The notes under the pieces were generated by a model. The model made no database searches. It worked only from the letters and a program-made list of their open reading frames with translations, and had not been told where the DNA came from. Shown here piece by piece: positions 5,594 to 29,304 of a stretch of DNA of 64,000 nt; within the stretch, counting starts at the first letter, position 1, and every line of letters starts with the position of its first letter. The stretch comes from a virus: positions 38,216 through 102,215 of IMG/VR virus record IMGVR_UViG_3300037419_002082; one strand, given 5' to 3'. A program made the position numbers and the translations under genes.

Positions 5594-5610
5594 AGTTTGC
5601 CTCCTAAGAT

Positions 5611-5648
5611 AAAACTAGCCCTCATAGGTTTTTCCTATGAAGGCTATT
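5611..5648 (-). terminator. Terminator-like hairpin between tRNA-Pro and the nrdJ RBS
   Basis: Minus strand reads AGCCTTCATAGG-AAAAA-CCTATGAGGGCT followed by AGTTTT. Confidence 0.65.
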
Positions 5649-5657
5649 AATAAAATA

Positions 5658-5731
5658 TTGGACTGACAGGACTCGAACCTGCAACCTCAACATCCCAAAT
5701 GTTGCCGTCTGCCAAATTGACTTACAGCCCA
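5658..5731 (-). tRNA. tRNA-Pro(UGG), CCA not encoded
   Basis: Cloverleaf: acceptor TGGGCTG/CAGTCCA, anticodon arm CAACA-TTTGGGA-TGTTG, T arm GCAGG-TTCGAGT-CCTGT. Confidence 0.9.
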
Positions 5732-5734
5732 AGG

Positions 5735-5858
5735 ATTACCAGTTGTGACCAGCAACTGGTAAAAGGGAAAGCACAATGATAACCAGGTATGCAATACATA
5801 ATAGGCGGCCCGTCGGCCGTAATGTGTCACCTACTGTTTCCGCAGTAGGCAACTGGAA
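5735..5858 (-). ncRNA. Putative structured RNA (multi-stem) inside the RNA cluster
   Basis: GC-rich hairpins CCTACTG/CAGTAGG, CGGCC/GGCCG and TTACCAGTTG/CAACTGGTAA in non-coding DNA. Strand inferred from neighbouring RNAs. Confidence 0.45.
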
Positions 5859-5876
5859 ATACTAAACTAAGTATAT

Positions 5877-5975
5877 CATAAATATTTGGAATCGAACCAA
5901 ACCACTTAAAATGCTAACCCTATACGTTAGCTGTTTCGGTCTCAATGGAATTCTAAGCTCACCCAGGGTATTTAT
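5877..5975 (-). ncRNA. tRNA-like element A (acceptor stem and T arm, no D stem, no anticodon arm)
   Basis: ATAAATA/TATTTAT acceptor, TTTGG-TTCGATT-CCAAA T arm, CCCTGGGTGAG loop, CTTAGAAT/ATTTTAAG helix. Confidence 0.6.
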
Positions 5976-5976
5976 G

Positions 5977-6129
5977 AGCTCTCAGCAGGAATTGAACCTA
6001 CCTTACACTATGCAAAAAGGGTTTACATTATTCGGTCAACATTCGATACTAGTCTTATTGGCGTTGCTAGATTTATACGAAGTTACTTTTCATCACCTTA
6101 CTTGCAATAGGCATCACCGGATTAAGAGC
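5977..6129 (-). ncRNA. tRNA-like element B (acceptor stem and T arm, long insert)
   Basis: GCTCTTA/TGAGAGC acceptor, GTAGG-TTCAATT-CCTGC T arm, ATCCGGTGATG loop, CTATTGCAAG/TTTGCATAG helix. Confidence 0.6.
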
Positions 6130-6197
6130 AAGATAGAAAATTAGATGGCTATGTATTTAAATATCATAACCACCTAATCAGAAAGGAGATTAATATA

Positions 6198-6238
6198 ATG
6201 ATATCATATTTTTTAGAACATATTCATATGAGTTTCAC
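6198..6238 (-). promoter_or_regulatory. GTGAAAC-N28-TATCAT promoter of the RNA cluster
   Basis: Motif on the reverse strand, directly after the primase stop. Confidence 0.6.
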
Positions 6239-6239
6239 C

Positions 6240-7313
6240 TTATTTAATCTTAGTTCTGTATTCATAGCGTTTAAGCCATTCTTCAATCGGCAATCTTTCT
6301 TCATAAAGTGAAAGCATATTTCTTTTCGATAAATCTGCGGGATCGTAACCATCTTCTATTTCTATGGCAGTAATTTTATATTCTGGATAGCAAAGATTTA
6401 CAATTGATTTTGCCAGCTTATAACCAGCTTTATCACCATCTACAAAAAGAATTAATTCATCGTCTATGAGGGAATCAATAAGCTCTTTCTGTTCATTGGA
6501 TAAGGTAGACCCATAAACACATGTTACATGTTTTAAACCTGCTTCGTAAATAGCCATTTGGTCTTTTTTACCTTCACAAAGAATAAGCTTATTTTCTTTT
6601 TGTATTTCTTCTCCAACAATATCTAATCTGCCAAGAAGTTTATTTTTGAGTAATCCTGCTCTTTTCTTCCATTTCTCTTTTGCTTTATTAGTAACATCTC
6701 TACCATCAAAGCCTAATAATTCACCTTCAGGAGAACGTTGAGGGAGGAGCCATCTTTTTTCTTTACTATCATATCCGGACTCAAATAATTCTAATGTAGA
6801 GTCTTTGAAACCTTGAGAGTCAATGAAACCAAGTTCATCTTTCTTATTCAGGAAATTTTGTAGTACTTCCTGAGTGAGTGGATTGACCCCATAGTAGAAC
6901 TCAGTATTATTCTCGATAGATTCATCTACTGAAATTTCAGTCAAAATATGGTCAATTTTTATCTTGAGTTCTTCAAGTAAAAACTCTCCATTATCTTCTA
7001 GTAGGTTTATATCTATTTCACATGCATCACATATAAATTCTACAGCATTTGTGTAAGATAGATTTTGAGCATGTTCTACAAGATTAATAATATCGCCGTC
7101 TTTTTTTCTATCATCGCATTCCCCATAGCATGTGTAAGCCATTTTAGTTGGGCTTAATACAAAAGCTGTAATGCCTTTAGAATGATGAATAGGACATGAA
7201 CTTCTAAAACCATTTGAATCTTTTGAAATACCTTGAGCTCCTAGAGATTCTAGGAGCATTTGTATTTTATCTTCTGTCATTAATTTTTTAAGTGCTACTG
7301 GTGAGTAACTCAT
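6240..7313 (-). CDS. dnaG: DNA primase (CHC2 zinc finger plus TOPRIM)
   Basis: CPIH...CYGEC zinc finger; CEGKKD and DGDKAG TOPRIM motifs. Confidence 0.9.
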   Translation of the reverse strand: MSYSPVALKKLMTEDKIQMLLESLGAQGISKDSNGFRSSCPIHHSKGITAFVLSPTKMAYTCYGECDDRKKDGDIINLVEHAQNLSYTNAVEFICDACEIDINLLEDNGEFLLEELKIKIDHILTEISVDESIENNTEFYYGVNPLTQEVLQNFLNKKDELGFIDSQGFKDSTLELFESGYDSKEKRWLLPQRSPEGELLGFDGRDVTNKAKEKWKKRAGLLKNKLLGRLDIVGEEIQKENKLILCEGKKDQMAIYEAGLKHVTCVYGSTLSNEQKELIDSLIDDELILFVDGDKAGYKLAKSIVNLCYPEYKITAIEIEDGYDPADLSKRNMLSLYEERLPIEEWLKRYEYRTKIK

Positions 7314-8701
7314 GCAGTTCCACCACCACCAATATAATCGCGTGGCTTATCCATAACTACCATAGGGTCTACATTTCCAATAGTAGCTTTAGCACCATTG
7401 AAATGAAATAATGCTTTTCTTAATTCACCTTCACGAATCTTTAAAGCACCAATTTCCATATGGTTTGGTAATTCAGATTGCGAGCCATAATAAAATTCAT
7501 CACGATATACATAAAAAATATTATGAGCATCTTGTTCTGCTTTACCAGTAGAGCGAATATCTTTCATAGTTGGTCGCTTATCATCTCTTTGTTCACAACC
7601 GCGATTAGCCTGTGATAAAGCAATCATAGCAACTTCATGATTCTTTGCCATCATACGAAGTTCTTCGGATATTTGACCAAATTCAAATTCTTCTGTAGGA
7701 ATATTTCCTTTTCTAGTACGAATTAATTGGAAATAATCTTCAAGTACTAATTGAATACCATATTTAGATTTTAAATAACTTAGTACAGAATCAATTTGAC
7801 CAATATTTAATTTAGCAGAATCAATAACAAATAATGGCCATGATTCTACTAGCTTTATGGCTTCATCTAATTGTTGCCATTCTGATTCTTCTAATTCTCC
7901 AGGTCGTTTTAATTTCTTCATTGGTATGCCAGTAACACGAGATAATAAACGCCTATAAACATCTGGAGTAGACATTTCGTGAGAAAAGAATGCAGTAGGT
8001 ATTCCATATTTTTCTGCAGCATTTTGAGCTAGATTCAATGCAGTACCTGTTTTATAATTAGATGGTCTACCAACAATATAAGTTAATGTACCTAAGGCAA
8101 TTTGATCTTGAGTCATTTTATCAAAATCACGTAGTCCAAATTGAATACCAAATTCAATGCCATTTTCTAATTGATATTGCATTGATTCTTTTAATTCTTT
8201 AAATCCAGTATGAATAGAAACTTCGACAATTAAGCCATCATTTATTTCTACTTCATTTAATCCTTTTTGGAATCCAGAGATAAAATCCCTTGCCGGTACA
8301 TCAATATTATCTAAACCATTTTTTAAAACCTGAATTACTTTTCTCTTAGTATACAAATCTCTCAATTTAAAAATATTTCTTCTTGTCATATCTATAAATT
8401 GAGCGTCATTTACCACTTCACGTTCAATCATTTTTTTATAACGATTGAGTTTTAATTGAGTTTGCGTAATATCTTTTTCATCTGTTAATTCAAGTTTATC
8501 AATAATGTAATGAGATGAAGGAATAAAATCCATGTTGTATCGACTTTCTTCTAATATTATATTGAGAATATCGAGATTATTTTGGTTAACACACTCAACA
8601 GCAGTAAAGTTTTCTTCAATTGCTACATTAAGAGCATCTCTAGACAACATGAAAAGACCAATGAGTTCTCTTTCTCGTTGGACATTAGATATTTTACCCA
8701 T
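7310..8701 (-). CDS. dnaB: Replicative DnaB-family helicase
   Basis: GRPSNYKT Walker A variant, FSHEM, DYFQLI, LSQANR, EQDA motifs. Confidence 0.9.
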   Translation of the reverse strand: MGKISNVQRERELIGLFMLSRDALNVAIEENFTAVECVNQNNLDILNIILEESRYNMDFIPSSHYIIDKLELTDEKDITQTQLKLNRYKKMIEREVVNDAQFIDMTRRNIFKLRDLYTKRKVIQVLKNGLDNIDVPARDFISGFQKGLNEVEINDGLIVEVSIHTGFKELKESMQYQLENGIEFGIQFGLRDFDKMTQDQIALGTLTYIVGRPSNYKTGTALNLAQNAAEKYGIPTAFFSHEMSTPDVYRRLLSRVTGIPMKKLKRPGELEESEWQQLDEAIKLVESWPLFVIDSAKLNIGQIDSVLSYLKSKYGIQLVLEDYFQLIRTRKGNIPTEEFEFGQISEELRMMAKNHEVAMIALSQANRGCEQRDDKRPTMKDIRSTGKAEQDAHNIFYVYRDEFYYGSQSELPNHMEIGALKIREGELRKALFHFNGAKATIGNVDPMVVMDKPRDYIGGGGTA

Positions 8702-9528
8702 TAGTTACCACCCTTCATGAATTTATTTTTATTTGTATAATTTGGAAGTTTACCAAGCTTAGGGCGATAATCTTCTAAAGAAACTATTGTAGTAATTAAA
8801 GAACGTTCTTGGAATAAAGAAACAATACGTTGTGCATACTTTTCATTAAGCATTTCTAAATTAGAATTAGTAGTAATAATCAAAGGTAGTTTTTTATAAT
8901 AGCGATGTCTCATTAATCCATCTAATTCTGTTACAGCCCAATCAGAACCATCTTTTCGATATTCTGTACCTAAATCATCTAGTACAAGAAATTGGCAATT
9001 ATAGATATGATTTTTTAATTTAACAAAGTCTTCATCATTCCAAGACTTTTTAATCATATCAAATAAATCTTTAATAGTAGTGAAATATCCGGAATAGCCT
9101 TTATCTACAAGATGCATTAATATCTTCATAGCAGATAAAGATTTACCTCTTCCAACTGGACCATTGAAGATAATACCGCGGCCATCTTCAAAATAATGCT
9201 GAGCATTATCAATATAATCTTCAATAAATGGATTAAGGAGAATAGGCATTTTACCATGTTTCTTTGGGTCAGATTCGCTTACATAATCATCGTCTTTTAG
9301 ATAAGCAGTAATTTCTTCTTCATATAATGGAAGAGATGCAAAATCAGTATCAACATTTGCATTCCTATGTTTACGTGTTTTAATTTCTTTTAACATGCAT
9401 TCACATAATCTTCCATCTTCTAAATAACCTGCATCACATTTTTGACAACCATTATATTGATTATCTTCTGTTGGTTTTAATTCACCTTCTTTTAATATGT
9501 GTTTAAGTTCTGGCTTGTATTCTTCCAT
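8701..9528 (-). CDS. Helicase loader (DnaC/IstB-like AAA+ ATPase)
   Basis: CQKC..CEC zinc site, GPVGRGKS, LVLDDLG and IITTN motifs. Start moved to MEEYKP. Confidence 0.85.
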   Translation of the reverse strand: MEEYKPELKHILKEGELKPTEDNQYNGCQKCDAGYLEDGRLCECMLKEIKTRKHRNANVDTDFASLPLYEEEITAYLKDDDYVSESDPKKHGKMPILLNPFIEDYIDNAQHYFEDGRGIIFNGPVGRGKSLSAMKILMHLVDKGYSGYFTTIKDLFDMIKKSWNDEDFVKLKNHIYNCQFLVLDDLGTEYRKDGSDWAVTELDGLMRHRYYKKLPLIITTNSNLEMLNEKYAQRIVSLFQERSLITTIVSLEDYRPKLGKLPNYTNKNKFMKGGN

Positions 9529-9572
9529 ATTTTCACCCCAATAAAAAAGATAGAGAAGCTGAATCTCTATCA

Positions 9573-9613
9573 ATTATATTTTACATGTAATTACGATTTA
9601 TAAAAGGTTTCAC
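9573..9613 (-). promoter_or_regulatory. GTGAAAC-N28-TATAAT promoter of the loader-helicase-primase operon
   Basis: Motif on the reverse strand. Confidence 0.7.
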
Positions 9614-10341
9614 ATCCAATCATCAATGTTAGTGGAATTTTGTATTGAATTTTTATAATGCGAATTTTCTTTTTTTACTTCTTTCTTCTTATTTTTATTT
9701 CTCATATCTTCCTTATACCAGTAATTATAAAATTGAGTCCAAACTGGGAATTTACACATAGGTGATATTTCTATGCATTTTTTTACATCATCGTATGTCA
9801 TACCATGATTAGCCATATAATTAGCTATAGTATCTGTAGCTTTAATTTTAAAAGACATACCTCTATTATACTGAGGATTATATAAAAAATACATTTTGGA
9901 TAAGTCTTGTATATCTAATTGTAAATCAATAAATTCTTTTACATTAGCTGGCTTTAAACTACATGGCATATAATAATCATTCTTATTTGCATCTACTTTA
10001 GAATAATCTATTTTATCTGCCCTATTAGTATTATATCCTTCTATTATAGTATTAAACTTATCTATATAGTAATTTTCTCTATGATGCATATAATTACTTA
10101 CTAATTTTTTATTTTCTATTCTATCAGTATTAATAATTTCTAATACTTTAAATTCAAAATTATTTAATCCATATTCTTCATAATCTTTTTGTAATCTTTT
10201 ATTATGTTTATTTCTTATTAATTCTTTATAATGGCCATATATTCTATTAGGTAATAATAAAGTTTGACCTACATATTTTTTATTATTAATAATATTTTCT
10301 ATTAAATAAATACTTTCTTTAATATCAAAATAACTTTTCAT
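9610..10341 (-). CDS. GIY-YIG endonuclease-domain protein
   Basis: SIYLIENIINNKKYVGQT N-terminus and the conserved R, E and GYN residues. Confidence 0.8.
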   Translation of the reverse strand: MKSYFDIKESIYLIENIINNKKYVGQTLLLPNRIYGHYKELIRNKHNKRLQKDYEEYGLNNFEFKVLEIINTDRIENKKLVSNYMHHRENYYIDKFNTIIEGYNTNRADKIDYSKVDANKNDYYMPCSLKPANVKEFIDLQLDIQDLSKMYFLYNPQYNRGMSFKIKATDTIANYMANHGMTYDDVKKCIEISPMCKFPVWTQFYNYWYKEDMRNKNKKKEVKKENSHYKNSIQNSTNIDDWM

Positions 10342-10766: not shown

Positions 10767-11234
10767 ATGTCCGAATATTGGGAGAGCTGGCAATTAAATC
10801 TTTTAGACGAATATATTCTTGGTTATTCTGCTTTTAATTCGCAATGGGAATTAGCAGAAGAGCTTGGAAAGTCTTTAAATGCTGTAAAGATAAAATTAAG
10901 CAGAAGACGCCAGTCCATTCAAGAGGAAGAAAGAGAATTGACTTTTGATGAATACAAAATGTTCTTATCCAATAGGTTTGATAAGACTACAGAACAAATT
11001 GCATCTCTTATTAATTCTTCTACTCTTTTTTTGATGAACGAATTGGACGAGATTGATTCATTGGAATGTTGTGAATATTTTGAAGAAGGTTATAAAGATA
11101 GAGTACCTTCTATTGATGAAATTAATACTTTCATTAGATTGTATAAAAAAGGTAGAAATGCCTTTCAAATTGCCCACATCCTAAACCGCCCCATTGAAAA
11201 AGTACAGGAGATGATTATATCATATGAAGTCTAA
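10767..11234 (+). CDS. Multi-HTH DNA-binding protein
   Basis: HTH-like segments QWELAEELGKSLNAVKIK and AFQIAHILNRPIEKV; strong RBS. Confidence 0.5.
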   Translation: MSEYWESWQLNLLDEYILGYSAFNSQWELAEELGKSLNAVKIKLSRRRQSIQEEERELTFDEYKMFLSNRFDKTTEQIASLINSSTLFLMNELDEIDSLECCEYFEEGYKDRVPSIDEINTFIRLYKKGRNAFQIAHILNRPIEKVQEMIISYEV

Positions 11235-11664
11235 GCATATTTTTAATACAATAAGAGTGGACAAATCTATTCCGCTCCCTTATCAAAAAAGAGATACTGA
11301 TGCAGGTCATGATGTTTACGCAGCAGAAACTAAATGGATTTGGCCTTGGACTACAAGAACAGTAAAGTCTAATCATCGGATTCATATTACCGATGGATTA
11401 TTTGGACTAATCCAATCAAGAAGTGGTATTAGGAAAAGAGGATTACTTATTGATGGAGTTATTGATGAAGGGTACCAAGGAATATTTGGCCTTATTATAT
11501 CTAACGTTAATATCTTTCCTAGAAGAATTAAAGCAGGAGAAAGAGTAGCACAGATTATCTATTTGGAACCGCATAAAGTTCAGCACCATGAAGTTGATGA
11601 ATTTTCAACAGAGACTGAACGCGGTAATGATGGCGGTCTTTGGCGGAAAGAATATAAAAAGTAG
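11224..11664 (+). CDS. dut: Trimeric dUTPase
   Basis: Motifs DAGHD, SRSG, GVIDEGYQG, GERVAQ and ERG..GG. Confidence 0.88.
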   Translation: MKSKHIFNTIRVDKSIPLPYQKRDTDAGHDVYAAETKWIWPWTTRTVKSNHRIHITDGLFGLIQSRSGIRKRGLLIDGVIDEGYQGIFGLIISNVNIFPRRIKAGERVAQIIYLEPHKVQHHEVDEFSTETERGNDGGLWRKEYKK

Positions 11665-12286: not shown

Positions 12287-12480
12287 AAATTATTGTGAAA
12301 TCTCTCTTAATGGGAGATTTTTTTATTTTATAATAAGATAGAAATTGAAAATTTCAAAAGTTAAAAAAAGGGAGTGTATTTAATGAAATTAATTATCTTC
12401 CAATAGAAATATTAATTTTACTAGCATCTTAGAATTAACATAAGATAATGCTGGATAAAAAAAATATTGGAGGTAAAAAA

Positions 12481-13359: not shown

Positions 13360-13400
13360 GTGAAACCATCTCTTATAGAGGTGGTTTTTTCTTTTATAAT
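13360..13400 (+). promoter_or_regulatory. GTGAAAC-N28-TATAAT promoter of the glycosyltransferase/heptose operon
   Basis: Member of a motif family with about 20 copies at fixed 27/28-bp spacing. Confidence 0.7.
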
Positions 13401-13580: not shown

Positions 13581-14759
13581 ATGGCAAACATCCTTTATTA
13601 CCCACAAATGAGTATGTATGACAAACAAACTAAAGAATTACTCCCAGCTGCAGACGGTAATATTAACATGATGCGTAATACTATATTGGAATGGAAAAAA
13701 TATCGTCCTGATGATGTATTTTATATTTTATTACCATCTGAATTAAACTTCAGTGATAAACTAGCAAAGATTTTACCACCAGGAACTAATAATGCTGCTC
13801 CATTATTTTATGATTCTTATGTAGTATCTGCTAGAATTAATCGCTTTAACTTTCCAATGAATGAAATTTCTTCTATATTAAAGAATATCAAAATTGATTT
13901 ACTTATCAATGATGTCATTGAGTTAACTGGTAATTTTAAACAAATGTTTAGAATTGAATTTAATGACTCACCAAAGATTATTTCTAATATTCGCCATATA
14001 GATGATGTACTAAATACTTCATATATGTTTAGAGTATTAGATGGTATTATTCAATCTGATTTAGTAACAATACTTTCAAGTACAATGCATAGTAAATTAG
14101 AATTACAACTTAGAGAAATGATTGGTGCTTGTAAGAATATTTTGGATAAGGTAAAAGTATTTGAGCCATCTATTTCTGAAGCAGAATTATTCAAATATTC
14201 AATGAACGCTAAACAAAAAGATTTAAATAAAGTAATTATTACTTTCCCAGGCAGATTATCTATTGGAGAAGAAAGAAGAACTAACTGGGATAAATTTACA
14301 AGCGCTATTTGGAAATTAAGGCAGAAAAGACAAGATTTTGAAGTTTATTTTACTGACCCAAATAATGCTTTAGATATTGGTACAGAAGTATCTCAGTGGA
14401 CTAAAACTATTCCAAAAGATAGAAATACTTTTTTAAATCTCCTTAATAAAACAGATATTATTGTTTCATTAATGGATATTGAAGGTTTTGGTGGTATTAG
14501 TATTCGTGAAGGATTATTAATGGATTGTATGCCTATTATTCCTATGGCTCATGAATATAAGAAGATGGCACCAGAACATTATTTAGGATATATATATGAT
14601 GCAGAAGTAAATCAATTAGTAGATGCTTTAGAGTGGGCAATATATAAAGTAAAAAATAGAGAAAAACCTTATGATTATAGAGCTTATGGCAAGCAATTTA
14701 CTGTTGAAGAGCAGTTTAAAAAGTTACTACCTAAAGTGGAGGAAGTTTTAAATGGCTGA
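13581..14759 (+). CDS. GT-B fold glycosyltransferase (GT4-like)
   Basis: FPGRL and EGFGGISIREG donor-binding motifs; coupled to gmhA. Confidence 0.8.
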   Translation: MANILYYPQMSMYDKQTKELLPAADGNINMMRNTILEWKKYRPDDVFYILLPSELNFSDKLAKILPPGTNNAAPLFYDSYVVSARINRFNFPMNEISSILKNIKIDLLINDVIELTGNFKQMFRIEFNDSPKIISNIRHIDDVLNTSYMFRVLDGIIQSDLVTILSSTMHSKLELQLREMIGACKNILDKVKVFEPSISEAELFKYSMNAKQKDLNKVIITFPGRLSIGEERRTNWDKFTSAIWKLRQKRQDFEVYFTDPNNALDIGTEVSQWTKTIPKDRNTFLNLLNKTDIIVSLMDIEGFGGISIREGLLMDCMPIIPMAHEYKKMAPEHYLGYIYDAEVNQLVDALEWAIYKVKNREKPYDYRAYGKQFTVEEQFKKLLPKVEEVLNG

Positions 14760-15339
14760 TTTTACTATGAATCTATTCCAATTACATGATTTAATAGGAA
14801 AGGTTGCTGGTTTAAAAGATGAAATTGAAAAAGCTGCTGAAGTCCTTGCCGAATGTGTTGCATATGGTGGTACTATCTACGTTATGGGTAATGGTGGTTC
14901 TGCCGCTGACGCTAATCATTTCTCTGGTGAAATTTTGGGGAGATTTAAGCGAGAGCGTAAAGGTCTCGGCTGCGTTTCTCTTTCTGCTGATAATGCTACT
15001 ATTACTGCTATTGCTAATGATTATGGGTTCGAGTATATTTTTGTTCGTCAGCTAGAAGGATTATTTGACCCATTAAAAGATGTAGTGTTTTCTATGACTA
15101 CATCAGGAAATTCTCTCAATATTATTAAAGCATTAGATTATGTAGCAAAAGTTAGCGGTAAATCAGTAAATCTTCTTGGAAGAGATGGCGGAAAGATAGC
15201 AGGGCAACCACAAGAAAATGAAATAAACATTATTATCCCAGCTCAAGATTCTGACCGCATCCAAGAGATGCATAAATTTATTCTTCATTATTTTGCTGAA
15301 GTTATTGAGGAGAGGTATTGCGAATTAAAATTAAATTAA
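14752..15339 (+). CDS. gmhA: Sedoheptulose-7-phosphate isomerase
   Basis: GNGGSAADANH, TAIANDYG, TSGNS and RIQEMH motifs. Confidence 0.95.
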   Translation: MADFTMNLFQLHDLIGKVAGLKDEIEKAAEVLAECVAYGGTIYVMGNGGSAADANHFSGEILGRFKRERKGLGCVSLSADNATITAIANDYGFEYIFVRQLEGLFDPLKDVVFSMTTSGNSLNIIKALDYVAKVSGKSVNLLGRDGGKIAGQPQENEINIIIPAQDSDRIQEMHKFILHYFAEVIEERYCELKLN

Positions 15340-15696
15340 GAATGGAGTGTTAGTATGCTAGGAGTAATTAAACAAGCAACAGAAAGTTCTGAAATGTGGC
15401 AATGGGCTTTCGCGCATCCTTATCTTTATACTTTAATTAAAATTGGTACACCTTCTTTTTATGCTATAGTCTTATATTTAGGCTTTAGAATAATTTCTAC
15501 AGTAATGGGAGGAAATAAACGTAGATGGAATTAAGAGACGGCGATATTTATGAACAGATTAATAGTAAATTAAAATTTACTTTAAAACAAGAGACTCCAG
15601 TTACTTGGAGTCTTAGTCTTGACAACCCTAGTAAAATCATTTACCCTGAAGTGTATATGATTAGTTTATTGGAGAAGAACTTTAGGAAGGTGGAAA

Positions 15697-16215
15697 ATGA
15701 ATAAAGCTATTTTCTTAGATAGAGACGGAGTCATTAATAAAAACACAGACTATGTAAATTGTATAGAAGATTTTCATATACTACCAAAAGTTAGAGATGC
15801 TTTAATGTTATTTAAACAAGCAGGATATAGAATCTTTGTTGTTACTAATCAAGGTGGCATTGAAAAAGGATTTTTAACAGAAGAAGATTTATATGAAATG
15901 CATGATTATATGATGAAAGAATTACCGGAAATAGAGGATTATAGATTTTGTCCTAGCTATGAATCATTTGGCAGAAAGCCTAATCCAGGTATGATTTATG
16001 ATTTAGCATCAGCACATGAAATTCATACTGGGAAATCCTGGATGATTGGTGATATGTTTTCAGATATTGAAGCAGGAATAAATGCTGGTTGTAAAACTGC
16101 TTTAGTAATAAATAGAATCCAAGAATCAGTTAAAGCATCAGGTAAAGCTAATGTTATGGGTGATAGTTTATATCAAGTTGCAATTATGATATTAGAATTG
16201 GAGGGTTATTTATGA
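15697..16215 (+). CDS. gmhB: D,D-heptose-1,7-bisphosphate phosphatase (HAD)
   Basis: FLDRDGVIN, VTNQGG, RKPNPGM and MIGD..SD motifs. Confidence 0.92.
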   Translation: MNKAIFLDRDGVINKNTDYVNCIEDFHILPKVRDALMLFKQAGYRIFVVTNQGGIEKGFLTEEDLYEMHDYMMKELPEIEDYRFCPSYESFGRKPNPGMIYDLASAHEIHTGKSWMIGDMFSDIEAGINAGCKTALVINRIQESVKASGKANVMGDSLYQVAIMILELEGYL

Positions 16216-16382
16216 GATACGAAAATATTCTTTATAATGAAGTAATTTATCATTTAGAAGAAAAGTGGGGTAGAAAATTAAATGACCACGAAAAACATGT
16301 TCTAATTGAAGGCTATCAGTTTGGCAGAAAAGTAGAAGCAGAAAACGAAATTAAAATGTTTTATGATACTAGAAGGGATTAA
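16212..16382 (+). CDS. Small hypothetical protein (56 aa, not in the ORF track)
   Basis: ATGA overlap with the gmhB stop, GGAGG RBS, followed by a terminator. Confidence 0.5.
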   Translation: MRYENILYNEVIYHLEEKWGRKLNDHEKHVLIEGYQFGRKVEAENEIKMFYDTRRD

Positions 16383-16400
16383 CCCTTCTTTTTTTTCTGT

Positions 16401-16440
16401 GTGAAACCTTTCATTTTAGTGTTATTTAAAAATATATAAT
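16401..16440 (+). promoter_or_regulatory. GTGAAAC-N27-TATAAT promoter upstream of hldA
   Basis: Motif and spacing counted by hand. Confidence 0.7.
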
Positions 16441-16462
16441 TAGAATATGAAAAGATTAAAAG

Positions 16463-17425
16463 ATGAATGGAGAGATGTTAATGTTAGATTTTTCAGATTT
16501 AAAAGTTCTTGTTCTAGGTGATGTAGCACTTGATATAGTAACAGAAGGGCCAAGCTATAGACAATCACCAGAGGCACCAGTTCCTGTTATATCTAATCCA
16601 ACCACTACTTATTCTTTAGGAATGGCAGCTAATGTGGCATTAAATCTTCATAGACTTGGTGCCAATTTAGCTTTCTCATTTAATATTGGAGAAGACGAAA
16701 AAGGAGAATTATTTGGAAAATTATTAGATTCCAATTTTTCTGGAGTTCATCATACTAGAACTGGTAAAAAAGATTATTTTACAACTGTAAAGCAAAGAAT
16801 AGTTGCTAATAATCAACAAGTTGCACGAATTGATTTTGAAGATAGCTTAACTGTTGATAAATTAGATGGATTTATTAAATCTATTGAAAGAAGAGTAAAT
16901 AGAGGCGCTTATTATGATTTAATTATCATTTCAGATTATAATAAGGGAATTATTACTAAGGAATCTTGGGAGATTCTAGAACCTCTATTATGGCAATTAT
17001 CTAAAAGATTCTTCGTTGATACTAAAAAGAAAGACGTTCTTAATTATTATGAAGGAATGTATATATTCCCTAATAAAAAAGAGATGCAAGAAATCATGGA
17101 TTATAATAATTGTAATACTCGTAATGAATTACGTAAAGAAATGGATTTAGATTTCCTTGTAGAAACTGCAAGCGAAGAGGGGGCTTACCTTTATAAAGAT
17201 GATGGCAAGATTTATCATTGTGAGCCATTTAAAGCTAATGTAGTAGATGTTACTGGCTGTGGAGATACTTTTGTAGCAGCATTTGCTTTATACTATACAA
17301 AGTATATGGATAAGAAAGCTGCATTAGGATTTGCTAATTATTGTTGTTCTAAGGTAATTGAAAGAAAAGGTACTACTCCAGTATTATTAAGTGAGGTGCT
17401 TGATTTTGAAGCTCAAAGCATTTAG
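16463..17425 (+). CDS. hldA: Heptose-7-phosphate kinase (HldE/RfaE domain I, PfkB family)
   Basis: GDVALD, SPEAPVPV, GMAANVA, SDYNKG and DVTGCGDT motifs. True start is probably a few codons downstream. Confidence 0.92.
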   Translation: MNGEMLMLDFSDLKVLVLGDVALDIVTEGPSYRQSPEAPVPVISNPTTTYSLGMAANVALNLHRLGANLAFSFNIGEDEKGELFGKLLDSNFSGVHHTRTGKKDYFTTVKQRIVANNQQVARIDFEDSLTVDKLDGFIKSIERRVNRGAYYDLIIISDYNKGIITKESWEILEPLLWQLSKRFFVDTKKKDVLNYYEGMYIFPNKKEMQEIMDYNNCNTRNELRKEMDLDFLVETASEEGAYLYKDDGKIYHCEPFKANVVDVTGCGDTFVAAFALYYTKYMDKKAALGFANYCCSKVIERKGTTPVLLSEVLDFEAQSI

Positions 17426-17918
17426 TCATGAATATTTTAAAGCATTAAAGGAAATTAGAAAAAAACGTATTATTTTTTTTAATGGCTGCTTTGATATTAT
17501 TCACCCAGGTCATTTGGCATTAATTAATAAAGCATTATCAAATAAAAACTTAACTAATAATGCTGTAGTTATTTGTGGTATTAATTCTGATGAATCTGCA
17601 AAGTCACAAAAGAAAAGTCATCCATTAGTAAATAATGAAACTAGTAGGGCAGAAATGCTATTAGCTCTTGGTGTAGACCATGTAATTATATTTGACGATG
17701 CTACTCCAAAGAATGTTATTATGAGTTTAATGCCAGACTTAGTAATAACAACTTCGGAATACTCAAGCAGATTTGGCAACTGTGAAGATTTAGATTTCTG
17801 TAGGGGACATGATATAGATGTTATTTCTATTGCAACTATTGCAGGTTATTCTACATCTAGTATTTACAGAAAAATCGAAGAACAAGTCAAAGCTAAAGTA
17901 AGGGAGAGCTTACAATGA
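17391..17918 (+). CDS. hldC: Heptose-1-phosphate nucleotidyltransferase (HldE/RfaE domain II)
   Basis: NGCFDIIHPGH, GINSDES and GYSTS motifs. Confidence 0.9.
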   Translation: MRCLILKLKAFSHEYFKALKEIRKKRIIFFNGCFDIIHPGHLALINKALSNKNLTNNAVVICGINSDESAKSQKKSHPLVNNETSRAEMLLALGVDHVIIFDDATPKNVIMSLMPDLVITTSEYSSRFGNCEDLDFCRGHDIDVISIATIAGYSTSSIYRKIEEQVKAKVRESLQ

Positions 17919-18457
17919 TATTAAAGCACAAGCTATTTGCCATTGACTTTGATGGAACAATTGCTTATGATGCATATCCAGGAGTGGGAGAACTCATTCC
18001 TGGAGCAAAGGAAACAATGATTAAAATCAAAGAACTTGGTGGTAAGATAGCAATTTGGACTTGCAGAACAGACCAATGGGCTCAGGATGCTAAAGATTTC
18101 TTGGATAAGAATGGCATTCCATATGATAAATTTAATAAGCCTTTTGATGAACATGTAAATCTTTATGGAGGAGACAATTCTCGTAAAGTATTTGCTGATG
18201 TATACATTGATGATAGAAGTATTCATTTTGGCGGCAAAACTGTAGACTGGTATTTACTACAGGATATGATTTTTGGTTATGATAAATGGAAAGTTGGAGA
18301 TACAATAGAGTGCTTAGAAGATTGTTGGGGAAATTTTAAAAAAGGCGAAAGGTTTGAAATAACTGCATTAAAAGAAGATGCAGATTTTATTTCTTTTGGA
18401 CCTATAGGTGGAGCAGGTTATTGGGATACTCAAGAATATTTTAAGAAGGTGAATTAA
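17915..18457 (+). CDS. HAD-family phosphatase
   Basis: AIDFDGT, IWTCR and K..ADVYIDDR motifs. Confidence 0.8.
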   Translation: MILKHKLFAIDFDGTIAYDAYPGVGELIPGAKETMIKIKELGGKIAIWTCRTDQWAQDAKDFLDKNGIPYDKFNKPFDEHVNLYGGDNSRKVFADVYIDDRSIHFGGKTVDWYLLQDMIFGYDKWKVGDTIECLEDCWGNFKKGERFEITALKEDADFISFGPIGGAGYWDTQEYFKKVN

Positions 18458-18688
18458 ATGAGTAGTAGTTCTGGAGTAAATAGGAATGAAATTAATTACA
18501 ATGAAAAAACAAAATATGTTTTAACAAAAGAGGAAGAAGGCTTTGTTTATAGTCAAATTAGTTATAGAAAAATCTTTTTTGAACAAGAAATTCAAAAGGC
18601 AGCAGGGATTTCAGACATTAAAAGAATAAAAGAATGTGTTAGAGCATTAGATATGATTGAAACTATTCAAAAAAAATTGTTAGGGTGA
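18458..18688 (+). CDS. Hypothetical protein
   Basis: In-operon ORF with an RBS. Confidence 0.5.
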   Translation: MSSSSGVNRNEINYNEKTKYVLTKEEEGFVYSQISYRKIFFEQEIQKAAGISDIKRIKECVRALDMIETIQKKLLG

Positions 18689-18692
18689 TAAT

Positions 18693-19682
18693 ATGTTCTT
18701 AATATTTGAATCGCCAAATAAATCTGGAAAAACAACTTTGGCAAGAATGATTGCAGATTATTTGAATATTCAATATGTAAAATTAAACAATATTAATGTA
18801 GTAGAAGATACAGCAATTAAAGATGGTATATCTATTTCTACACATTCGCAATTAGAAACTATTACTCAGCTACATGAGAAAGGGGTGATGAAAGATGTTG
18901 TCTTGGATAGATTCCACGTTTCGGAATTTGTGTATAAAAATCTACTTGGAAGAACCTATGATATTTCATACATTGATGATATTGAGAAACGATTGTCAAA
19001 ATACAATGATATTCTTTTGGTACGTTGTAGAACATCTCTTCCAGTATTAAAAGATAGATGGTATGATGAAAAACTTATTCCAACTCAAAAAGTAACGGAA
19101 GAATCTAGATTATATAATTACTTCTATACAAAGACAAAACTACCAGTAATTGAAATAGATACAGATGGTTCTGTAGAAAAAGCATTTGCAGAATTAGTAT
19201 CTAAATTAGAGTTACATGGAGTATCTCAAAAGTATTTCAGACAAAGAAGAATTACACATGACCAAGCTATGATGAATGTTGCTAAAATTATGGCAAAGAG
19301 AAGTCCATGCTTAACTAGACAAGTTGGTTGTGTAATGACAGAAGATGGCTTTGTAGTTGGAGTAGGATATAATGGTCCACCATCAGGATTAAAGCATGAC
19401 CAAGTAGATATTAGAAAAGCAAAAGGATTTAAATCTGGAGAAGGATTAGATTTTAGTAGAGATGTTCATGCAGAACAAAATGCTATGCAGCAGTCCGGTG
19501 TTAGAAGTAAAAGAGCAGGTAAATTGGAACTATTCACGACAGCATCACCTTGTATACATTGCATGAGGCAATGTATTCAAATTGGTATTGAGAGAATAGT
19601 TTATATTGAAAAATATAATCAACCTCTTGCTTGGGAAATGGCAGAAGAAGCAGGTATAGAAATGATTCAATATGAAGAATAG
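18693..19682 (+). CDS. Fusion of a dNMP kinase (N-terminal) and a dCMP deaminase (C-terminal)
   Basis: P-loop ESPNKSGKTT and LDRFH in the N-terminal half; VGYNG, HAEQNA and SPCIHC zinc-deaminase motifs in the C-terminal half. Confidence 0.88.
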   Translation: MFLIFESPNKSGKTTLARMIADYLNIQYVKLNNINVVEDTAIKDGISISTHSQLETITQLHEKGVMKDVVLDRFHVSEFVYKNLLGRTYDISYIDDIEKRLSKYNDILLVRCRTSLPVLKDRWYDEKLIPTQKVTEESRLYNYFYTKTKLPVIEIDTDGSVEKAFAELVSKLELHGVSQKYFRQRRITHDQAMMNVAKIMAKRSPCLTRQVGCVMTEDGFVVGVGYNGPPSGLKHDQVDIRKAKGFKSGEGLDFSRDVHAEQNAMQQSGVRSKRAGKLELFTTASPCIHCMRQCIQIGIERIVYIEKYNQPLAWEMAEEAGIEMIQYEE

Positions 19683-19706
19683 AAACTCTCTATTCTTCTT
19701 TTTTTT

Positions 19707-19751
19707 GTGAAACTGATAAAAAAATGGGTATAAAAAATGATATTCTATAAT
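19707..19751 (+). promoter_or_regulatory. GTGAAAC-class promoter upstream of the TS homolog
   Basis: GTGAAAC-N27-TATTCT, with an overlapping TATAAT. Confidence 0.6.
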
Positions 19752-19783
19752 AGAAGAAAATAATTAAAAAAGAGGGTATAAAT

Positions 19784-20770
19784 ATGGATGCTTATATTTC
19801 ATTAGAAAAAGCTTTACAAGGTACACTAGTTGATGTATGTGAAAAAGGAATTGTTACTTCTCCTAGAGGAAGGCAATCCAAAGAATTAATTGGTCATGGT
19901 TATGTTTTAACTAATCCAAGAGCTAGAATTATCGGATTAGCAGCAAGAAATTTAAATCCATTTTATTTGGTAGGAAATCTATTATGGGTTTTACGTCAAT
20001 CAAATAAATTGGAAGTTATTAATTATTATAACCCACGAGGCTCAATGTTCAGTGATGATGGTGAAATTCTTCGTGGCGCTTATGGTAAACGTATTTTTGA
20101 TTTTGATGGTATTAATCAATGGAAACAATGTTATAATGAATTAAAAGTAGACCCTGATTCACGTAGAGCTATTGTTTCTATTCATTTACCACAGCATGAT
20201 TGGACAGGTTCATTAGATACACCATGTACAGCGGATTTTCAATTCTTATTAAGAGATAATAAACTTCACATGGTAAATCATATGAGAAGTCAATCTGCTG
20301 CATTTGTTCAGCCATATGATGTATTCTTAATGACTATGATTCAAGAATTAATGGCTAATGAATTAGGAGTAGAATTAGGAATTTACAAACATATTTGTAA
20401 CTCATATCATTATTTTACTAATGAACAAGATATGGTAGATGCAATTATTGAAAGTGAAGATTATACACCATCTATGCAGCATATGGTTGGAGGAATGGCA
20501 GAAGTAAAACTTCTTTTAACTTTTGAAGCTTTAGCAAGAAAAGTAACAATTGAATTGGCACAACAAGGTTTACTAACAGATATTAAATATCTAGAAAGAG
20601 AATTGGATAAATTAGGTTTACCAACTTTCTGGAATAATATTGGAGAAGTACTAATTGCTAAAGCTATTAATCTGCTAGATGGTAATAATGGTGCTACTTA
20701 TTTAGATTATGTGCGAAATAGCATAAATAACGGTAATCCATTTAAAAAATTATTGCTTCAATTACATTAA
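19784..20770 (+). CDS. Thymidylate-synthase homolog, cytosine-type (dCMP hydroxymethylase-like)
   Basis: AYGKR, PDSRRA, catalytic TPC and MRSQS...PYD, with Asp where ThyA has Asn. A canonical thyA is present elsewhere in the window. Confidence 0.8.
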   Translation: MDAYISLEKALQGTLVDVCEKGIVTSPRGRQSKELIGHGYVLTNPRARIIGLAARNLNPFYLVGNLLWVLRQSNKLEVINYYNPRGSMFSDDGEILRGAYGKRIFDFDGINQWKQCYNELKVDPDSRRAIVSIHLPQHDWTGSLDTPCTADFQFLLRDNKLHMVNHMRSQSAAFVQPYDVFLMTMIQELMANELGVELGIYKHICNSYHYFTNEQDMVDAIIESEDYTPSMQHMVGGMAEVKLLLTFEALARKVTIELAQQGLLTDIKYLERELDKLGLPTFWNNIGEVLIAKAINLLDGNNGATYLDYVRNSINNGNPFKKLLLQLH

Positions 20771-20864
20771 TAAAAGAGGGAGTTTCGACTCCCTTTTAAT
20801 TTAAACTATATTGAGAATGATTCTCATTTATATACTAATAACATTTAACCAGGAGGGAGTTGAT

Positions 20865-21479
20865 ATGAAAAAACTCACTAAAAAGCAAGTTAAACTATTA
20901 GAAGATAATTTACCCTTTGTAACGTATGTTGCAAAAAGATATTTTAGCAAGACAGACTTTGATAAAAATAGGGATATAATTCAAGAAGGAATTTTTGCTA
21001 TGGCTAAAGCTTTACCTAAGTATGACCCAGAAAAAGGAAAAATTACAACCTATTTATTTCCAACTTTAGATGGCCATTTAAAAAGGTATGTTCGTTATCA
21101 AGATAGATTAATTCCTATTCCGCATCAGAAGCATTTAAAACAGGAAACTATGGCTAAAGCAGAACAAGCTAAAAATGTATACTCTTTAGATTTGGAATAC
21201 AAAGGAAGTGGAAATCAAGATAAGGAGCCGTATACTTTAATGCATGTTATTCCAGATAAGAAAACTGAAGAAATGGATGAAAAAATTATAAATAAAATAG
21301 TTTTAATTGATGGTATTAAAACTCAGTTAGATTGGAGAGAAAAAGTAATTATTACTTATCGCTTCTATTTTGACCTTGACCAGACACAAATTGGTAAATT
21401 AATGGGAATATCACAGGTGCACACACATAGAATAATTAGTAAGGCTTTAGTTAAGCTAAAAAATTATATTACAAAGTAA
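20865..21479 (+). CDS. Sigma-70 family factor, SigF/SigG/SigB-like
   Basis: Region 2 NLPFVTYVAKRY...DIIQEG...YDPEKG and region 4 QTQIGKLMGISQVH. Confidence 0.88.
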   Translation: MKKLTKKQVKLLEDNLPFVTYVAKRYFSKTDFDKNRDIIQEGIFAMAKALPKYDPEKGKITTYLFPTLDGHLKRYVRYQDRLIPIPHQKHLKQETMAKAEQAKNVYSLDLEYKGSGNQDKEPYTLMHVIPDKKTEEMDEKIINKIVLIDGIKTQLDWREKVIITYRFYFDLDQTQIGKLMGISQVHTHRIISKALVKLKNYITK

Positions 21480-22098: not shown

Positions 22099-22139
22099 GT
22101 GAAACTTCAGTTTTCTGAAGTTTTTCTTTGTTATATAAT
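22099..22139 (+). promoter_or_regulatory. GTGAAAC-N28-TATAAT promoter upstream of dnaE
   Basis: Motif and spacing. Confidence 0.7.
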
Positions 22140-28326: not shown

Positions 28327-28923
28327 ATGCCGAAAGGCAAATTAATTGTCTTTGAGGGGGCAGATAATCTGGGAAAAACAACCCAGATTGATGCTCTCTT
28401 CTCTTACCTAAGAAAGAAGAATATAAATGTTATGAAAACTAGAGAACCCGGTGCAACTAATTTAGGGTCTAAAATAAGGGAAATTCTTCTTAATAGTACA
28501 GAGAAAATACCTCCAAAGGCACAATTACTCCTTTTCCAGGCAGATAGAAATATTCACTCAGAAAATATCCTTAAACCTTATTTGGAGAAGGGATATATTA
28601 TCCTTTGCGATAGATTCTATCTATCCACTTTAGTTTATCAACATAAACTAAATGGAACATCTGAAAATGCTGTATATGATTTAAATGCATTCTCAACTGA
28701 TTATTTAGTTCCGGATAAAGTATTTGTATTTCATGGTACAATGCTTACAGACGAAGCTCGTGATGAGTATGAAAAACATACTGTGAATAAAAATCACGAG
28801 AAATTAAATAATTATTATATTGAATATGGGATGGTTTTGCCAAACCATATTTTAATAAATGCTAATAGAAGTAAAGAGGTTATCTTTGATGAACTTCTTA
28901 CTTATATAGAGGAATGGATTTAA
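28327..28923 (+). CDS. tmk: Thymidylate kinase
   Basis: FEGADNLGKTT, TREPG, ADR and CDRF..ST..YQ motifs. Confidence 0.92.
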   Translation: MPKGKLIVFEGADNLGKTTQIDALFSYLRKKNINVMKTREPGATNLGSKIREILLNSTEKIPPKAQLLLFQADRNIHSENILKPYLEKGYIILCDRFYLSTLVYQHKLNGTSENAVYDLNAFSTDYLVPDKVFVFHGTMLTDEARDEYEKHTVNKNHEKLNNYYIEYGMVLPNHILINANRSKEVIFDELLTYIEEWI

Positions 28924-29278
28924 TACCTTCATAAAAAACAAATATACCGGAGGTATAATAAAATGGCTCTTAATGGACCTAATAACGAAATTAAAGATAA
29001 TGAATTTAATGACCTGGTTCAAAAAGGTTGGTTGGTTGTAGGTACTGGTGCTAATGCAGGACTTTATCAATTAACAACTAAAGGTTTAGCAGAATATGAC
29101 CGTTTAGTTCGTTCATTATCTGGTAAAGCTCAAGTTTTAGTTGGTCTTAAGTTAGCATCTAATGCTTTCACAGCACCAGCTACTATTAAAGGCTTTATGC
29201 AACAATAATTATGAGAAAAATGGCTCCCCTATGTGGGAGCTATTTTTATATCAAGAGGAATGGAATTTAATACCTTCA
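28908..29278 (+). repeat. Direct repeat AGAGGAATGGA(A)TTTAATACCTTCA at 28908 and 29254, flanking one gene and a terminator
   Basis: 24/25-bp match read directly from the sequence. Confidence 0.8.
28963..29208 (+). CDS. Small protein with a winged-helix-like wing motif
   Basis: DLVQKGWL...YQLTTKG; RBS GGAGG; own terminator at about 29222-29247. Confidence 0.55.
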   Translation: MALNGPNNEIKDNEFNDLVQKGWLVVGTGANAGLYQLTTKGLAEYDRLVRSLSGKAQVLVGLKLASNAFTAPATIKGFMQQ

Positions 29279-29304
29279 CCAAGACATAATAAAAGGTGAA
29301 TGGT

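Follow-up and report, generated by a model that had tools for sequence, protein, structure and literature searches.

A candidate cytosine-heptosylation system in a soil phage: divergent ADP-heptose genes, a GT-B glycosyltransferase and a thymidylate synthase homolog in one conserved block

RESULTS

The DNA analyzed here (the window; 64,000 nucleotides, positions 38,216 to 102,215) is the final part of a 102-kb virus record in IMG/VR, IMGVR_UViG_3300037419_002082, whose completeness is put at 71% by CheckV; the size of the whole phage genome is roughly 140 kb. Our subject is a block of genes at 13581 to 20770 that encodes a GT-B glycosyltransferase (GT), four enzymes of the families that make ADP-heptose, a HAD phosphatase (here HAD2), a nucleotide kinase fused to a deaminase, and a homolog of thymidylate synthase (TS) of the cytosine type, and that we read as a candidate system for placing heptose on the cytosines of the phage DNA. 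A system of this kind had been proposed earlier from the sequence alone (the original prediction), and all the genes that it named are present where it had placed them, co-oriented on the plus strand (Table 1). The block lies in a replication and nucleotide module together with genes for ribonucleotide reductase (RNR), DnaB, primase, dUTPase, a sigma factor, the alpha subunit of DNA polymerase III (Pol III alpha), Tmk, ThyA, and FolA. The canonical thyA, folA, and tmk genes had been described as standing apart from the block, and they do so, at 28327-31239.

Table 1. Features of the gene block and its surroundings (window coordinates; ORF, open reading frame; aa, amino acids; nt, nucleotides)
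Feature	Position	Strand	Evidence or remark
GT-B (GT4/GT5-like) glycosyltransferase, 392 aa; predicted heptosyltransferase, putative acceptor cytosine	13581..14759	+	AlphaFold fold
GmhA-like sedoheptulose-7-P isomerase	14752..15339	+	NF010546 2e-49; TIGR00441 5.6e-43; 8-nt overlap with GT stop
Two 59-aa ORFs, no assigned function	15355..15704	+	Not conserved in relative L003
GmhB-like heptose-1,7-bisphosphate 7-phosphatase (HAD-IIIA)	15697..16215	+	NF006506 1.3e-36; 73% identity to L003
HldA-type D-beta-D-heptose-7-P 1-kinase (PfkB; HldE domain I)	16463..17425	+	TIGR02198 4.4e-65
HldC-type heptose-1-P adenylyltransferase (HldE domain II; cytidylyltransferase-like fold)	17391..17918	+	TIGR02199 4.2e-25; PDB 5x9q 1.3e-11; phrog_7878
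BT0820-type HAD phosphatase (HAD2)	17915..18457	+	NF046079 8.9e-23; DxDGT motif intact
76-aa ORF (o76), no assigned function	18458..18688	+	Absent from L003
P-loop nucleotide kinase fused to dCMP/dCTP deaminase	18693..19682	+	PF00383 3e-17; phrog_761 3e-9; GKT, HAE, PCxxC intact
Cytosine-type TS homolog, Q168/V173 clade; predicted 5-hydroxy-dCMP synthase-like	19784..20770	+	PF00303 3e-18
TGAAAC/TATAAT promoter-like site overlapping terminator-like hairpin (13362-13388)	13361..13400	+	Start of unit 1
Terminator-like hairpin (16371-16389), then TGAAAC/TATAAT promoter-like site	16371..16440	+	Start of unit 2
Terminator-like hairpin	19674..19698	+	End of unit 2
Trimeric dUTPase-family protein	11224..11664	+	PF00692 1.2e-21; 2 kb upstream of block; supporting nucleotide enzyme
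Canonical tmk	28327-28923	+	Confirmed, separate from block
C5-cytosine-methyltransferase-like ORF, 212 aa	29296-29934	+	Between tmk and thyA, overlapping thyA start
Canonical thyA	29913-30761	+	Confirmed, separate from block
Canonical folA	30691-31239	+	Confirmed, separate from block

The sugar genes cover all four enzyme families of ADP-heptose biosynthesis, and in each case the best family, as well as the best PDB entry where this was tested, is a heptose enzyme. The GmhA-like protein is closest to GmhA of C. jejuni (1tk9, 5.5e-42), and the HldA-type kinase matches HldA of B. cenocepacia at 2e-32 (4e84), with the next PfkB kinase following at 5.6e-9. The original prediction had seen no HldD epimerase in the window, and PF01370 likewise gave no match to such an epimerase (of the short-chain dehydrogenase/reductase type) in the 102-kb record, itself 71% complete. 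Because no epimerase was found, the D,D form of the heptose would be expected. A different sugar-rich arrangement is seen in an unrelated large phage (IMGVR_UViG_3300012953_000015, 143 kb; L166:4714-18586), in which genes for a UDP-glucose dehydrogenase, a GT2 enzyme, a sulfotransferase, and an NDP-sugar epimerase/dehydratase occur with HldC- and HldA-like genes, an Fpg/Nei glycosylase, and a second GT2-like gene. These stand directly before Pol III alpha, a canonical TS homolog of the dCMP-hydroxymethylase type, and a dUTPase, and may represent another sugar-rich cytosine modification.

The GT gave no Pfam match and no meaningful PDB match by sequence. Its AlphaFold (AF2) model, built with 33 homologs (pLDDT 88.7), has as its nearest PDB folds in Foldseek glycogen synthase (an ADP/UDP-glucose enzyme), PglA, BshA, MshA, and PimA, with top E values of 1e-11 to 1e-10, and the nearest viral models are GTs of Bacillus phage SP-15, Rhizobium phage RL2RES, and several T4-like phages. 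The protein is soluble, with no transmembrane segment and no signal peptide, and has an isoelectric point (pI) of 6.2. Its homologs, which form 38 clusters, are all metagenomic; tblastn found no match in 50,697 phage records, and neither the single sequence nor the alignment returned a locus in IMG/VR. The gene is located 5 kb upstream of the TS homolog, inside the conserved block and in the early/replication module, away from the structural genes, and no second GT of the GT1 or GT2 type was found in the record. Action of the GT on DNA is a prediction from the model, with cytosine as the putative acceptor. Net charge was considered as a sign of DNA binding and rejected: the pI of 6.2 compares with 9.05 for the T4 beta-GT, but the RB69p050 and RL38J1_215 proteins are as acidic as the GT studied here.

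The TS homolog combines the TS fold and the catalytic Cys146 with the substitutions E58N, L143D, C168Q, D169S, G173V, N177D, and Y209F (E. coli ThyA numbering). N177D (D179 of the window protein) is the Asp that had been noticed at the pyrimidine-specificity position, and together with L143D (D145) it is common to (d)CMP hydroxymethylases. The signature is invariant among homologs at 46 to 100% identity, whereas E58, D169, and G173 are retained in T4 gp42, in gp319 of Bacillus phage G, and in 112 of 126 more distant related loci. RB69 gp48, DLP3 gp80, and RL38J1 gp216 are flavin-dependent 5-hydroxy-dCMP synthases, for which D169N has been proposed as a marker (Lee et al., NAR 2026, PMC13326640). 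At positions 58, 168, 169, 173, 177, and 209, RB69 gp48 has E, Q, N, V, D, and F, and RL38J1 gp216 has F, Q, N, V, D, and Y. Q168 and V173 are common to these two enzymes and the window protein, F209 is shared with RB69 only, and position 169 is Ser here and Asn there.

The phylogeny places the window protein with the hydroxylases. With IQ-TREE (LG+G4, 52 sequences), the Q168/V173 proteins, including the verified RB69 gp48 and RL38J1 gp216, form one clade with an ultrafast bootstrap (UFBoot) support of 98, in which the D169S subclade that holds the window protein (UFBoot 77) is sister to the D169N subclade that holds both verified enzymes; FastTree with 162 sequences supports the Q168/V173 clade at 0.975. 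The AF2 model (pLDDT 95) has MilA (TM score 0.85) and HY126 AfhB (core root mean square deviation of 2.0 A) as its closest folds. The protein also carries a C-terminal helical extension of ~100 residues, and the overall fold, extension included, is nearest to MilA, which is the best sequence match with a solved structure as well (3.5e-37). Among cultured phages, the best match is gp319 of Bacillus phage G (E value of 7e-41). The loss of both folate-side carboxylates (E58 and D169) disfavors the classical hydroxymethylase chemistry. The T4-like route through 5-hydroxymethyl-dC, which the original prediction had taken as its template, is thus less likely given this loss and the grouping with the 5-hydroxy-dCMP synthases, and 5-hydroxycytosine (5hoC) appears, judged from the sequences, to be a likelier acceptor than 5-hydroxymethylcytosine (5hmC).

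The D169S clade is widespread in soil and rhizosphere metagenomes, with about 50 protein clusters. A TS homolog of this type was also seen in a Mucilaginibacter metagenome-assembled genome (L013:8634-10921), where it abuts the stop of a guanylate-kinase-like/SAM-methyltransferase fusion (8634-9962) and lies next to a gene for the N-terminal domain of a type I restriction R subunit; there, the C5 oxygen may be O-methylated and not glycosylated. In Nitrosopumilus genomes (L010, L016, and L017) and in L011 and L012, TS homologs have Q168, N169 or D169, and L173 or V173. These thaumarchaeal proteins fall inside the 5-hydroxy-dCMP synthase clade, a hint that viruses or proviruses of archaea may use chemistry of the 5hoC type.

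The remaining genes of the block are of the kind that accompany cytosine-type TS homologs elsewhere. In 40 of 126 loci, none of them with heptose genes, a canonical cytosine-type TS homolog is followed within a few hundred bases by a HAD2 homolog. One such locus (L066, 7059-11304) has the order TET-associated-type GT, radical SAM/SPASM protein, small P-loop kinase, canonical cytosine-type TS, small ORF, and HAD2 homolog, and clusters like it recur in about 39 similar IMG/VR loci. The N-terminal domain of the kinase-deaminase fusion resembles the small kinase of this locus (7e-8) and gp315 of phage G (3e-7) and, weakly, RL38J1_214, while its deaminase domain matches phage G gp317 at 2e-27. Because both recur beside cytosine-type TS homologs without heptose genes, the kinase and HAD2 can be placed in the nucleotide arm as parts of a recurrent cytosine-modification toolkit, HAD2 being a phosphatase more probably of the nucleotide side than of the sugar side. 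The original prediction was right that a HAD phosphatase and a deoxynucleoside monophosphate (dNMP) kinase belong to the block; the difference is that both are tied to the nucleotide arm and to clusters that lack heptose genes. An identity of HAD2 with the AfhF-type phosphatase was rejected, as it has no similarity to RB69 gp51, the AfhF analogue. The fusion has the domain layout of the anti-phage dCTP deaminases of the DcdV type (PADLOC model, 3.2e-29), and against NF041025 it scores 92 bits, where the cutoff is 400, the best stretch being the deaminase core only (residues 244 to 319). It may deplete dCTP besides dCMP and so be a possible stand-in for the dCTPase that was not found.

The spacing of regulatory-looking sites suggests how the block is transcribed. 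The pattern TGAAAC-N25-30-TAnAAT occurs 13 times in the window, compared to 1.2 expected, and strict copies are located at 13361 before the GT, at 16402 before HldA, and at 22100 before Pol III alpha. The original prediction had assigned common GTGAAAC promoters to the block and the replication genes, and this held in part: it is the TGAAAC motif that precedes the GT, HldA, and Pol III alpha. The sites suggest one unit with the GT, GmhA, two small ORFs, GmhB, and one small ORF; a second with HldA, HldC, HAD2, o76, and the kinase-deaminase, in which stops and starts overlap or abut; and a third with the TS homolog. Judged from the consensus promoter- and terminator-like sites and the ORF overlaps, the sugar and nucleotide genes of unit 2 are probably cotranscribed, and within the block nothing links the two arms more strongly than this unit. 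Several TGAAAC boxes (13361-13400, 22100-22139, and 12297-12321) fall on the 5' arm of a terminator-like hairpin, with a T-run and TATAAT coming next in that order, and the recurring motif may be a combined terminator and promoter unit and not a simple upstream promoter element. The phage has at least three sigma-70-family proteins, including those encoded at 4595-6692 on the minus strand of the record (G000) and at 20811-21479 on the plus strand of the window; the latter gene directly follows the TS homolog, which would fit a phage-specific promoter class.

The block is conserved as a unit in relatives. A metagenome scan yielded one useful locus (L003), in which the order of the whole block is preserved and the sigma factor and Pol III alpha come next, at protein identities of 38 to 73%. 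We also compared the homolog lists of the GT (38 clusters), the TS homolog (about 50 in the close clade), and HldA (37). Homologs of all three have longest contigs of identical size (71734, 56796, and 25593 bp), and pairs of the three coincide at 108298, 103750, 51705, 61775, 106796, 109723, 25696, 99715, 66081, 74042, and 47446 bp. From these identical sizes, the genes of the block appear to stand together on about 14 further long metagenomic contigs. The original prediction had named a failure of the heptose genes and the TS homolog to co-occur in related phages as grounds for abandoning it; by the synteny of L003 and the contigs of identical size, they do co-occur.

DNA nearly identical to the window was seen in soil and rhizosphere metagenomes, some of which possibly include the source sample; the runs that contain it are DNA metagenomes, with no RNA run listed. 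A megablast search of phage records with the block returned no match, and no cultured phage is a near relative in nucleotide sequence. The first 38 kb of the record holds the structural genes, with terminase, T4-type portal, prohead protease, and tail genes (G000, 14-39 kb). Because the relatives of the large terminase are almost all from phages of Bacillus, Staphylococcus, Enterococcus, Listeria, and Lactobacillus and the G+C content is ~30%, the host of this uncultured soil phage is likely a member of the Bacillota. The Gram-positive host of the original prediction agrees with the terminase relatives, as something deduced and not observed.

The C5-methyltransferase-like ORF between tmk and thyA has motifs I, IV, and VI intact (DLFSG, PPCTTFS, and ENP), is far shorter than usual DNA C5-methyltransferases, and gave no match in the PDB. 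The record as a whole is strongly depleted in GATC, with 16 copies compared to about 250 expected (observed/expected ratio of 0.06, z of -17.8), 11 of the 16 lying in the last 11 kb of the window, and L003 has none where 20 are expected. This suggests long-standing selection by a GATC-specific nuclease. GAATTC, ATCGAT, and TTCGAA are also depleted in the record. The use of GATC depletion as an argument against modification was rejected, since regions of RB69 and T4, in which the cytosines are fully modified, are also poor in GATC.

DISCUSSION

The best explanation for the block, to which we assign a probability of about 0.55, is that a C5-modified deoxycytidine is made before replication and is then heptosylated on the DNA with a donor that the phage makes itself. 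Synteny and operon structure back this core of the original prediction, from which we depart in the analogy to T4, in the role of the HAD phosphatase and the kinase, and in the claim of novelty. In the proposed route, the TS homolog would oxidize C5 of dCMP. Its most likely product would be 5-hydroxy-dCMP, formed by chemistry of the flavin type like that of RB69 gp48 and HY126 AfhB, with 5-hydroxymethyl-dCMP less likely. The kinase domain of the fusion would phosphorylate the modified dCMP, and incorporation into DNA would then fall to NDP kinase from the host and Pol III alpha from the phage. The deaminase domain, the dUTPase, and HAD2 would drain the canonical deoxycytidine nucleotides to dUMP, which would pass to dTMP via ThyA, FolA, and Tmk. 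The four sugar enzymes, identified by homology and presumed active, would supply the heptose donor, expected in its D,D form, for which a Gram-positive host would not normally be a source, and the soluble GT-B enzyme would attach the heptose, through the oxygen at C5, to the modified cytosine of the DNA. Heptosylation would shield the genome from restriction and from other defenses that target nucleic acids. A more detailed version, that the virion DNA of this clade carries heptosyl-5-hydroxycytosine made by the D169S branch of TS homologs, with ADP-D,D-heptose made wholly by the phage as the Gram-positive host lacks it, is tentative and on balance doubtful as a whole. Heptosyl-5-hydroxycytosine is a nucleobase not yet reported from natural DNA, and the D169S branch would extend or alter the flavin-type hydroxylase chemistry.

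Several observations weigh against heptosylation of DNA by this block. The co-occurrence of the genes comes from one phage lineage, and shared ancestry may explain it instead of functional linkage. All four heptose enzymes score under the NCBIfam equivalog cutoffs (GmhA 168 bits compared to 276, GmhB 126 to 178, the kinase 220 to 345, and the transferase 88 to 181.5), and because of these scores, we regard them as divergent phage members of their families. By fold, the GT has only GT4/GT5 enzymes of a generic kind as neighbors. Most GT4-like enzymes are retaining and take donors with an alpha linkage, whereas ADP-heptose is beta-linked. The GT family also gave an hhalign probability of <2% with RB69 gp50 (RB69p050) and RL38J1 gp215, which were assigned to DNA glycosylation from predicted structures (PMC13326640). 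The D169N marker of the 5-hydroxy-dCMP synthases is absent, the window protein and its homologs at 46 to 100% identity having Ser instead, and this makes the product of the TS homolog uncertain; we estimate about 60% for 5-hydroxy-dCMP, about 20% for 5-hydroxymethyl-dCMP, and about 20% for another product. No MazG-type dCTPase was found in the record, which holds 71% of the genome. The C5-methyltransferase-like ORF would have no substrate if every cytosine were C5-substituted, and together with the depletion of GATC (a weak point, as regions of RB69 and T4 share it), it may mean that some cytosines are unmodified and that replacement is perhaps partial. The heptose genes, finally, also travel without the nucleotide genes: among 80 viral HldA-like loci, HldC is adjacent in 51 and a TS homolog lies within 10 kb in 1, and GmhA (4 loci) and GmhB (2 loci) are rare nearby.

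These last counts also speak for the explanation that we take most seriously among the alternatives, although we consider it unlikely, namely that the block serves two separate functions, with the TS homolog, the kinase-deaminase, and HAD2 acting on cytosine nucleotides, maybe to give an unglycosylated base, and the GT and the heptose directed to another target such as virion proteins, the teichoic acid or S-layer of the host (for receptor masking or superinfection exclusion), or some other cytoplasmic target. Heptose genes are already known as auxiliary genes of phages (phrog_14703, phrog_8133, and phrog_7878), ~65% of phage GT contigs have no base-modifying enzyme nearby (Pyle et al., bioRxiv 10.1101/2023.12.21.572611), and the GT and the TS homolog are in different predicted transcription units. 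However, HldA and HldC share their hairpins and promoter-like site with HAD2 and the kinase-deaminase, with ORFs that overlap or abut, and the set stays together in relatives down to about 41 to 50% identity. The placement of the block among replication genes, at a distance from the structural ones, and a GT without a signal peptide or transmembrane segment also speak against it. That the GT is not basic could be taken to favor a target other than DNA, but the GTs that have been assigned by predicted structure to 5hoC systems, RB69p050 and RL38J1_215, are equally acidic.

It is less probable still that the DNA is glycosylated but with other details, the base being 5hmC made by a folate reaction like that of MilA or T4, or the donor being something other than ADP-D,D-heptose, such as another nucleotide carrier or a related phosphosugar. 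The standing of MilA as the best match of the TS homolog in both sequence and fold, the residues L143D and N177D that it has in common with hydroxymethylases, the scores of the heptose enzymes below their equivalog cutoffs, and the fact that the sole published heptosylated DNA base is heptosyl-5hmC would all be in keeping with this. The replacement of E58 and D169 by N and S throughout the clade, along with G173V, argues the other way, these residues being kept in the canonical enzymes, as does the grouping of the clade with verified hydroxylases and not with the E/D/G-type proteins; on the donor side, the HldA match is specific, at 2e-32 compared to 5.6e-9 for other PfkB kinases. MilA is also an enzyme of nucleoside-antibiotic biosynthesis, with CMP as its substrate, and with a GT acceptor that is only predicted, the block might instead make a soluble small molecule, either a heptosylated cytosine nucleotide or nucleoside (compare MilA in mildiomycin) or ADP-heptose as an effector against the host. 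We find this very improbable, since the setting is the replication module of a lytic phage with Pol III alpha, dUTPase, RNR, ThyA, and Tmk, the kinase, deaminase, and HAD2 are the companions found in DNA hypermodification clusters, and the block has no further tailoring or export genes.

If cytosine heptosylation is the function of the block, it is best recast, by analogy, as the heptose counterpart of the arabinosyl-5hoC systems of RB69, DLP3, and HY126 (Afh genes; PMC13326640) rather than of T4. Those systems likewise have a dCMP C5-oxygenase of the TS family from the same clade, an adjacent nucleotide kinase, and GT-B enzymes, and their donor is made by a phage-encoded four-step logic of SIS isomerase, anomeric kinase, distal HAD phosphatase, and nucleotidyltransferase. 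They differ in the sugar, which is arabinose (UDP-Araf), in using a KdsD-type isomerase, an APH-type kinase, and an RmlA-type transferase, in having D169N instead of D169S, and in their Gram-negative hosts; the GTs are unrelated in sequence, as are the HAD phosphatases. T4, which makes glucosyl-5hmC with gp42, gp1, gp56, cd, and the alpha- and beta-GTs, shares a TS homolog that modifies dCMP, a dNMP kinase, a dCMP deaminase, and a GT-B enzyme acting after replication. In contrast to the TS homolog here, gp42 keeps E58, D169, and G173 and depends on folate; T4 takes its donor, UDP-glucose, from the host and has a dedicated dCTPase, whereas none was found in this record (71% complete). In Bacillus phage G (gp309 to gp319, L008), there are a kinase-like gp315, a dCMP deaminase gp317, a cytosine-type TS gp319 with a C-terminal extension, a glucosyltransferase, and a set of NDP-sugar genes, but its TS has the E/D/G/D residues of a canonical hydroxymethylase, its kinase and deaminase are not fused, and its sugar genes are of the glucose-1-P thymidylyltransferase type and not heptose genes. 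This collection of phage G genes, which lies within 9 kb and includes an "alpha glucosyl transferase" and a glucose-1-P thymidylyltransferase/HAD set, suggests glycosylated 5hmC in a cultured Bacillus phage.

On the sugar side, the bacterial pathway to ADP-L-glycero-beta-D-manno-heptose for the lipopolysaccharide (LPS) core uses the same four families, with the split into HldA and HldC as in Burkholderia. The phage set differs in having no HldD in the 102-kb record, in a GT4/GT5-like transferase where no GT9 heptosyltransferase is found, and in the divergence of its genes. The closest precedent for heptose on DNA is that of Pyle et al., in which mono- and di-heptosyl-5hmC (449 and 641 u) were formed in E. 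coli that expressed a HAD/APH enzyme, a cytidylyltransferase, and a GT-B of a metagenomic phage contig (bioRxiv 10.1101/2023.12.21.572611). In that system ("contig 53"), a phage GT-B likewise attaches one heptose or two to DNA cytosine that carries an oxygen at C5, and an enzyme of the cytidylyltransferase fold is required, but a methyltransferase and a 5mYOX/TET enzyme make 5hmC after replication and E. coli metabolites are used, whereas here the TS homolog would act before replication. The HAD/APH enzyme there is bifunctional and GmhA, HldA, and GmhB are absent, while here all four heptose-activation enzymes are present. A search for a TET-like gene (Tet_JBP) gave no match in the record, a weak negative, as a control search likewise found none in any genome. 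A GT-B enzyme with ThyS and dCMP deaminase is a recognized signature of pre-replicative hypermodification (bioRxiv 10.1101/2023.12.21.572611). The original prediction knew of no comparable natural phage. Given heptosyl-5hmC (Pyle et al. 2023), its claim of novelty is too strong, while the part concerning a self-contained phage pathway with a D169S TS homolog still stands: our searches of the literature on phage heptose and hypermodification turned up no account of a phage in which a complete ADP-heptose pathway is linked to a TS homolog.

If our interpretation is true, the GT and the TS homolog could be considered as tools for labeling DNA. ADP-heptose is an innate-immune agonist in animals, and for this reason, the heptose enzymes could be of use as a compact, LPS-independent source of the D,D isomer. 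The D169N marker for 5-hydroxycytosine synthases would miss the sister D169S clade. Library preparation could suffer from the modification, so that such phages may be undercounted. This would be the first phage with a complete ADP-heptose pathway feeding DNA modification; heptose would be added to the sugars known from phage cytosines, among them glucose, arabinose, and galactose, and the modified DNA would probably resist many restriction enzymes.

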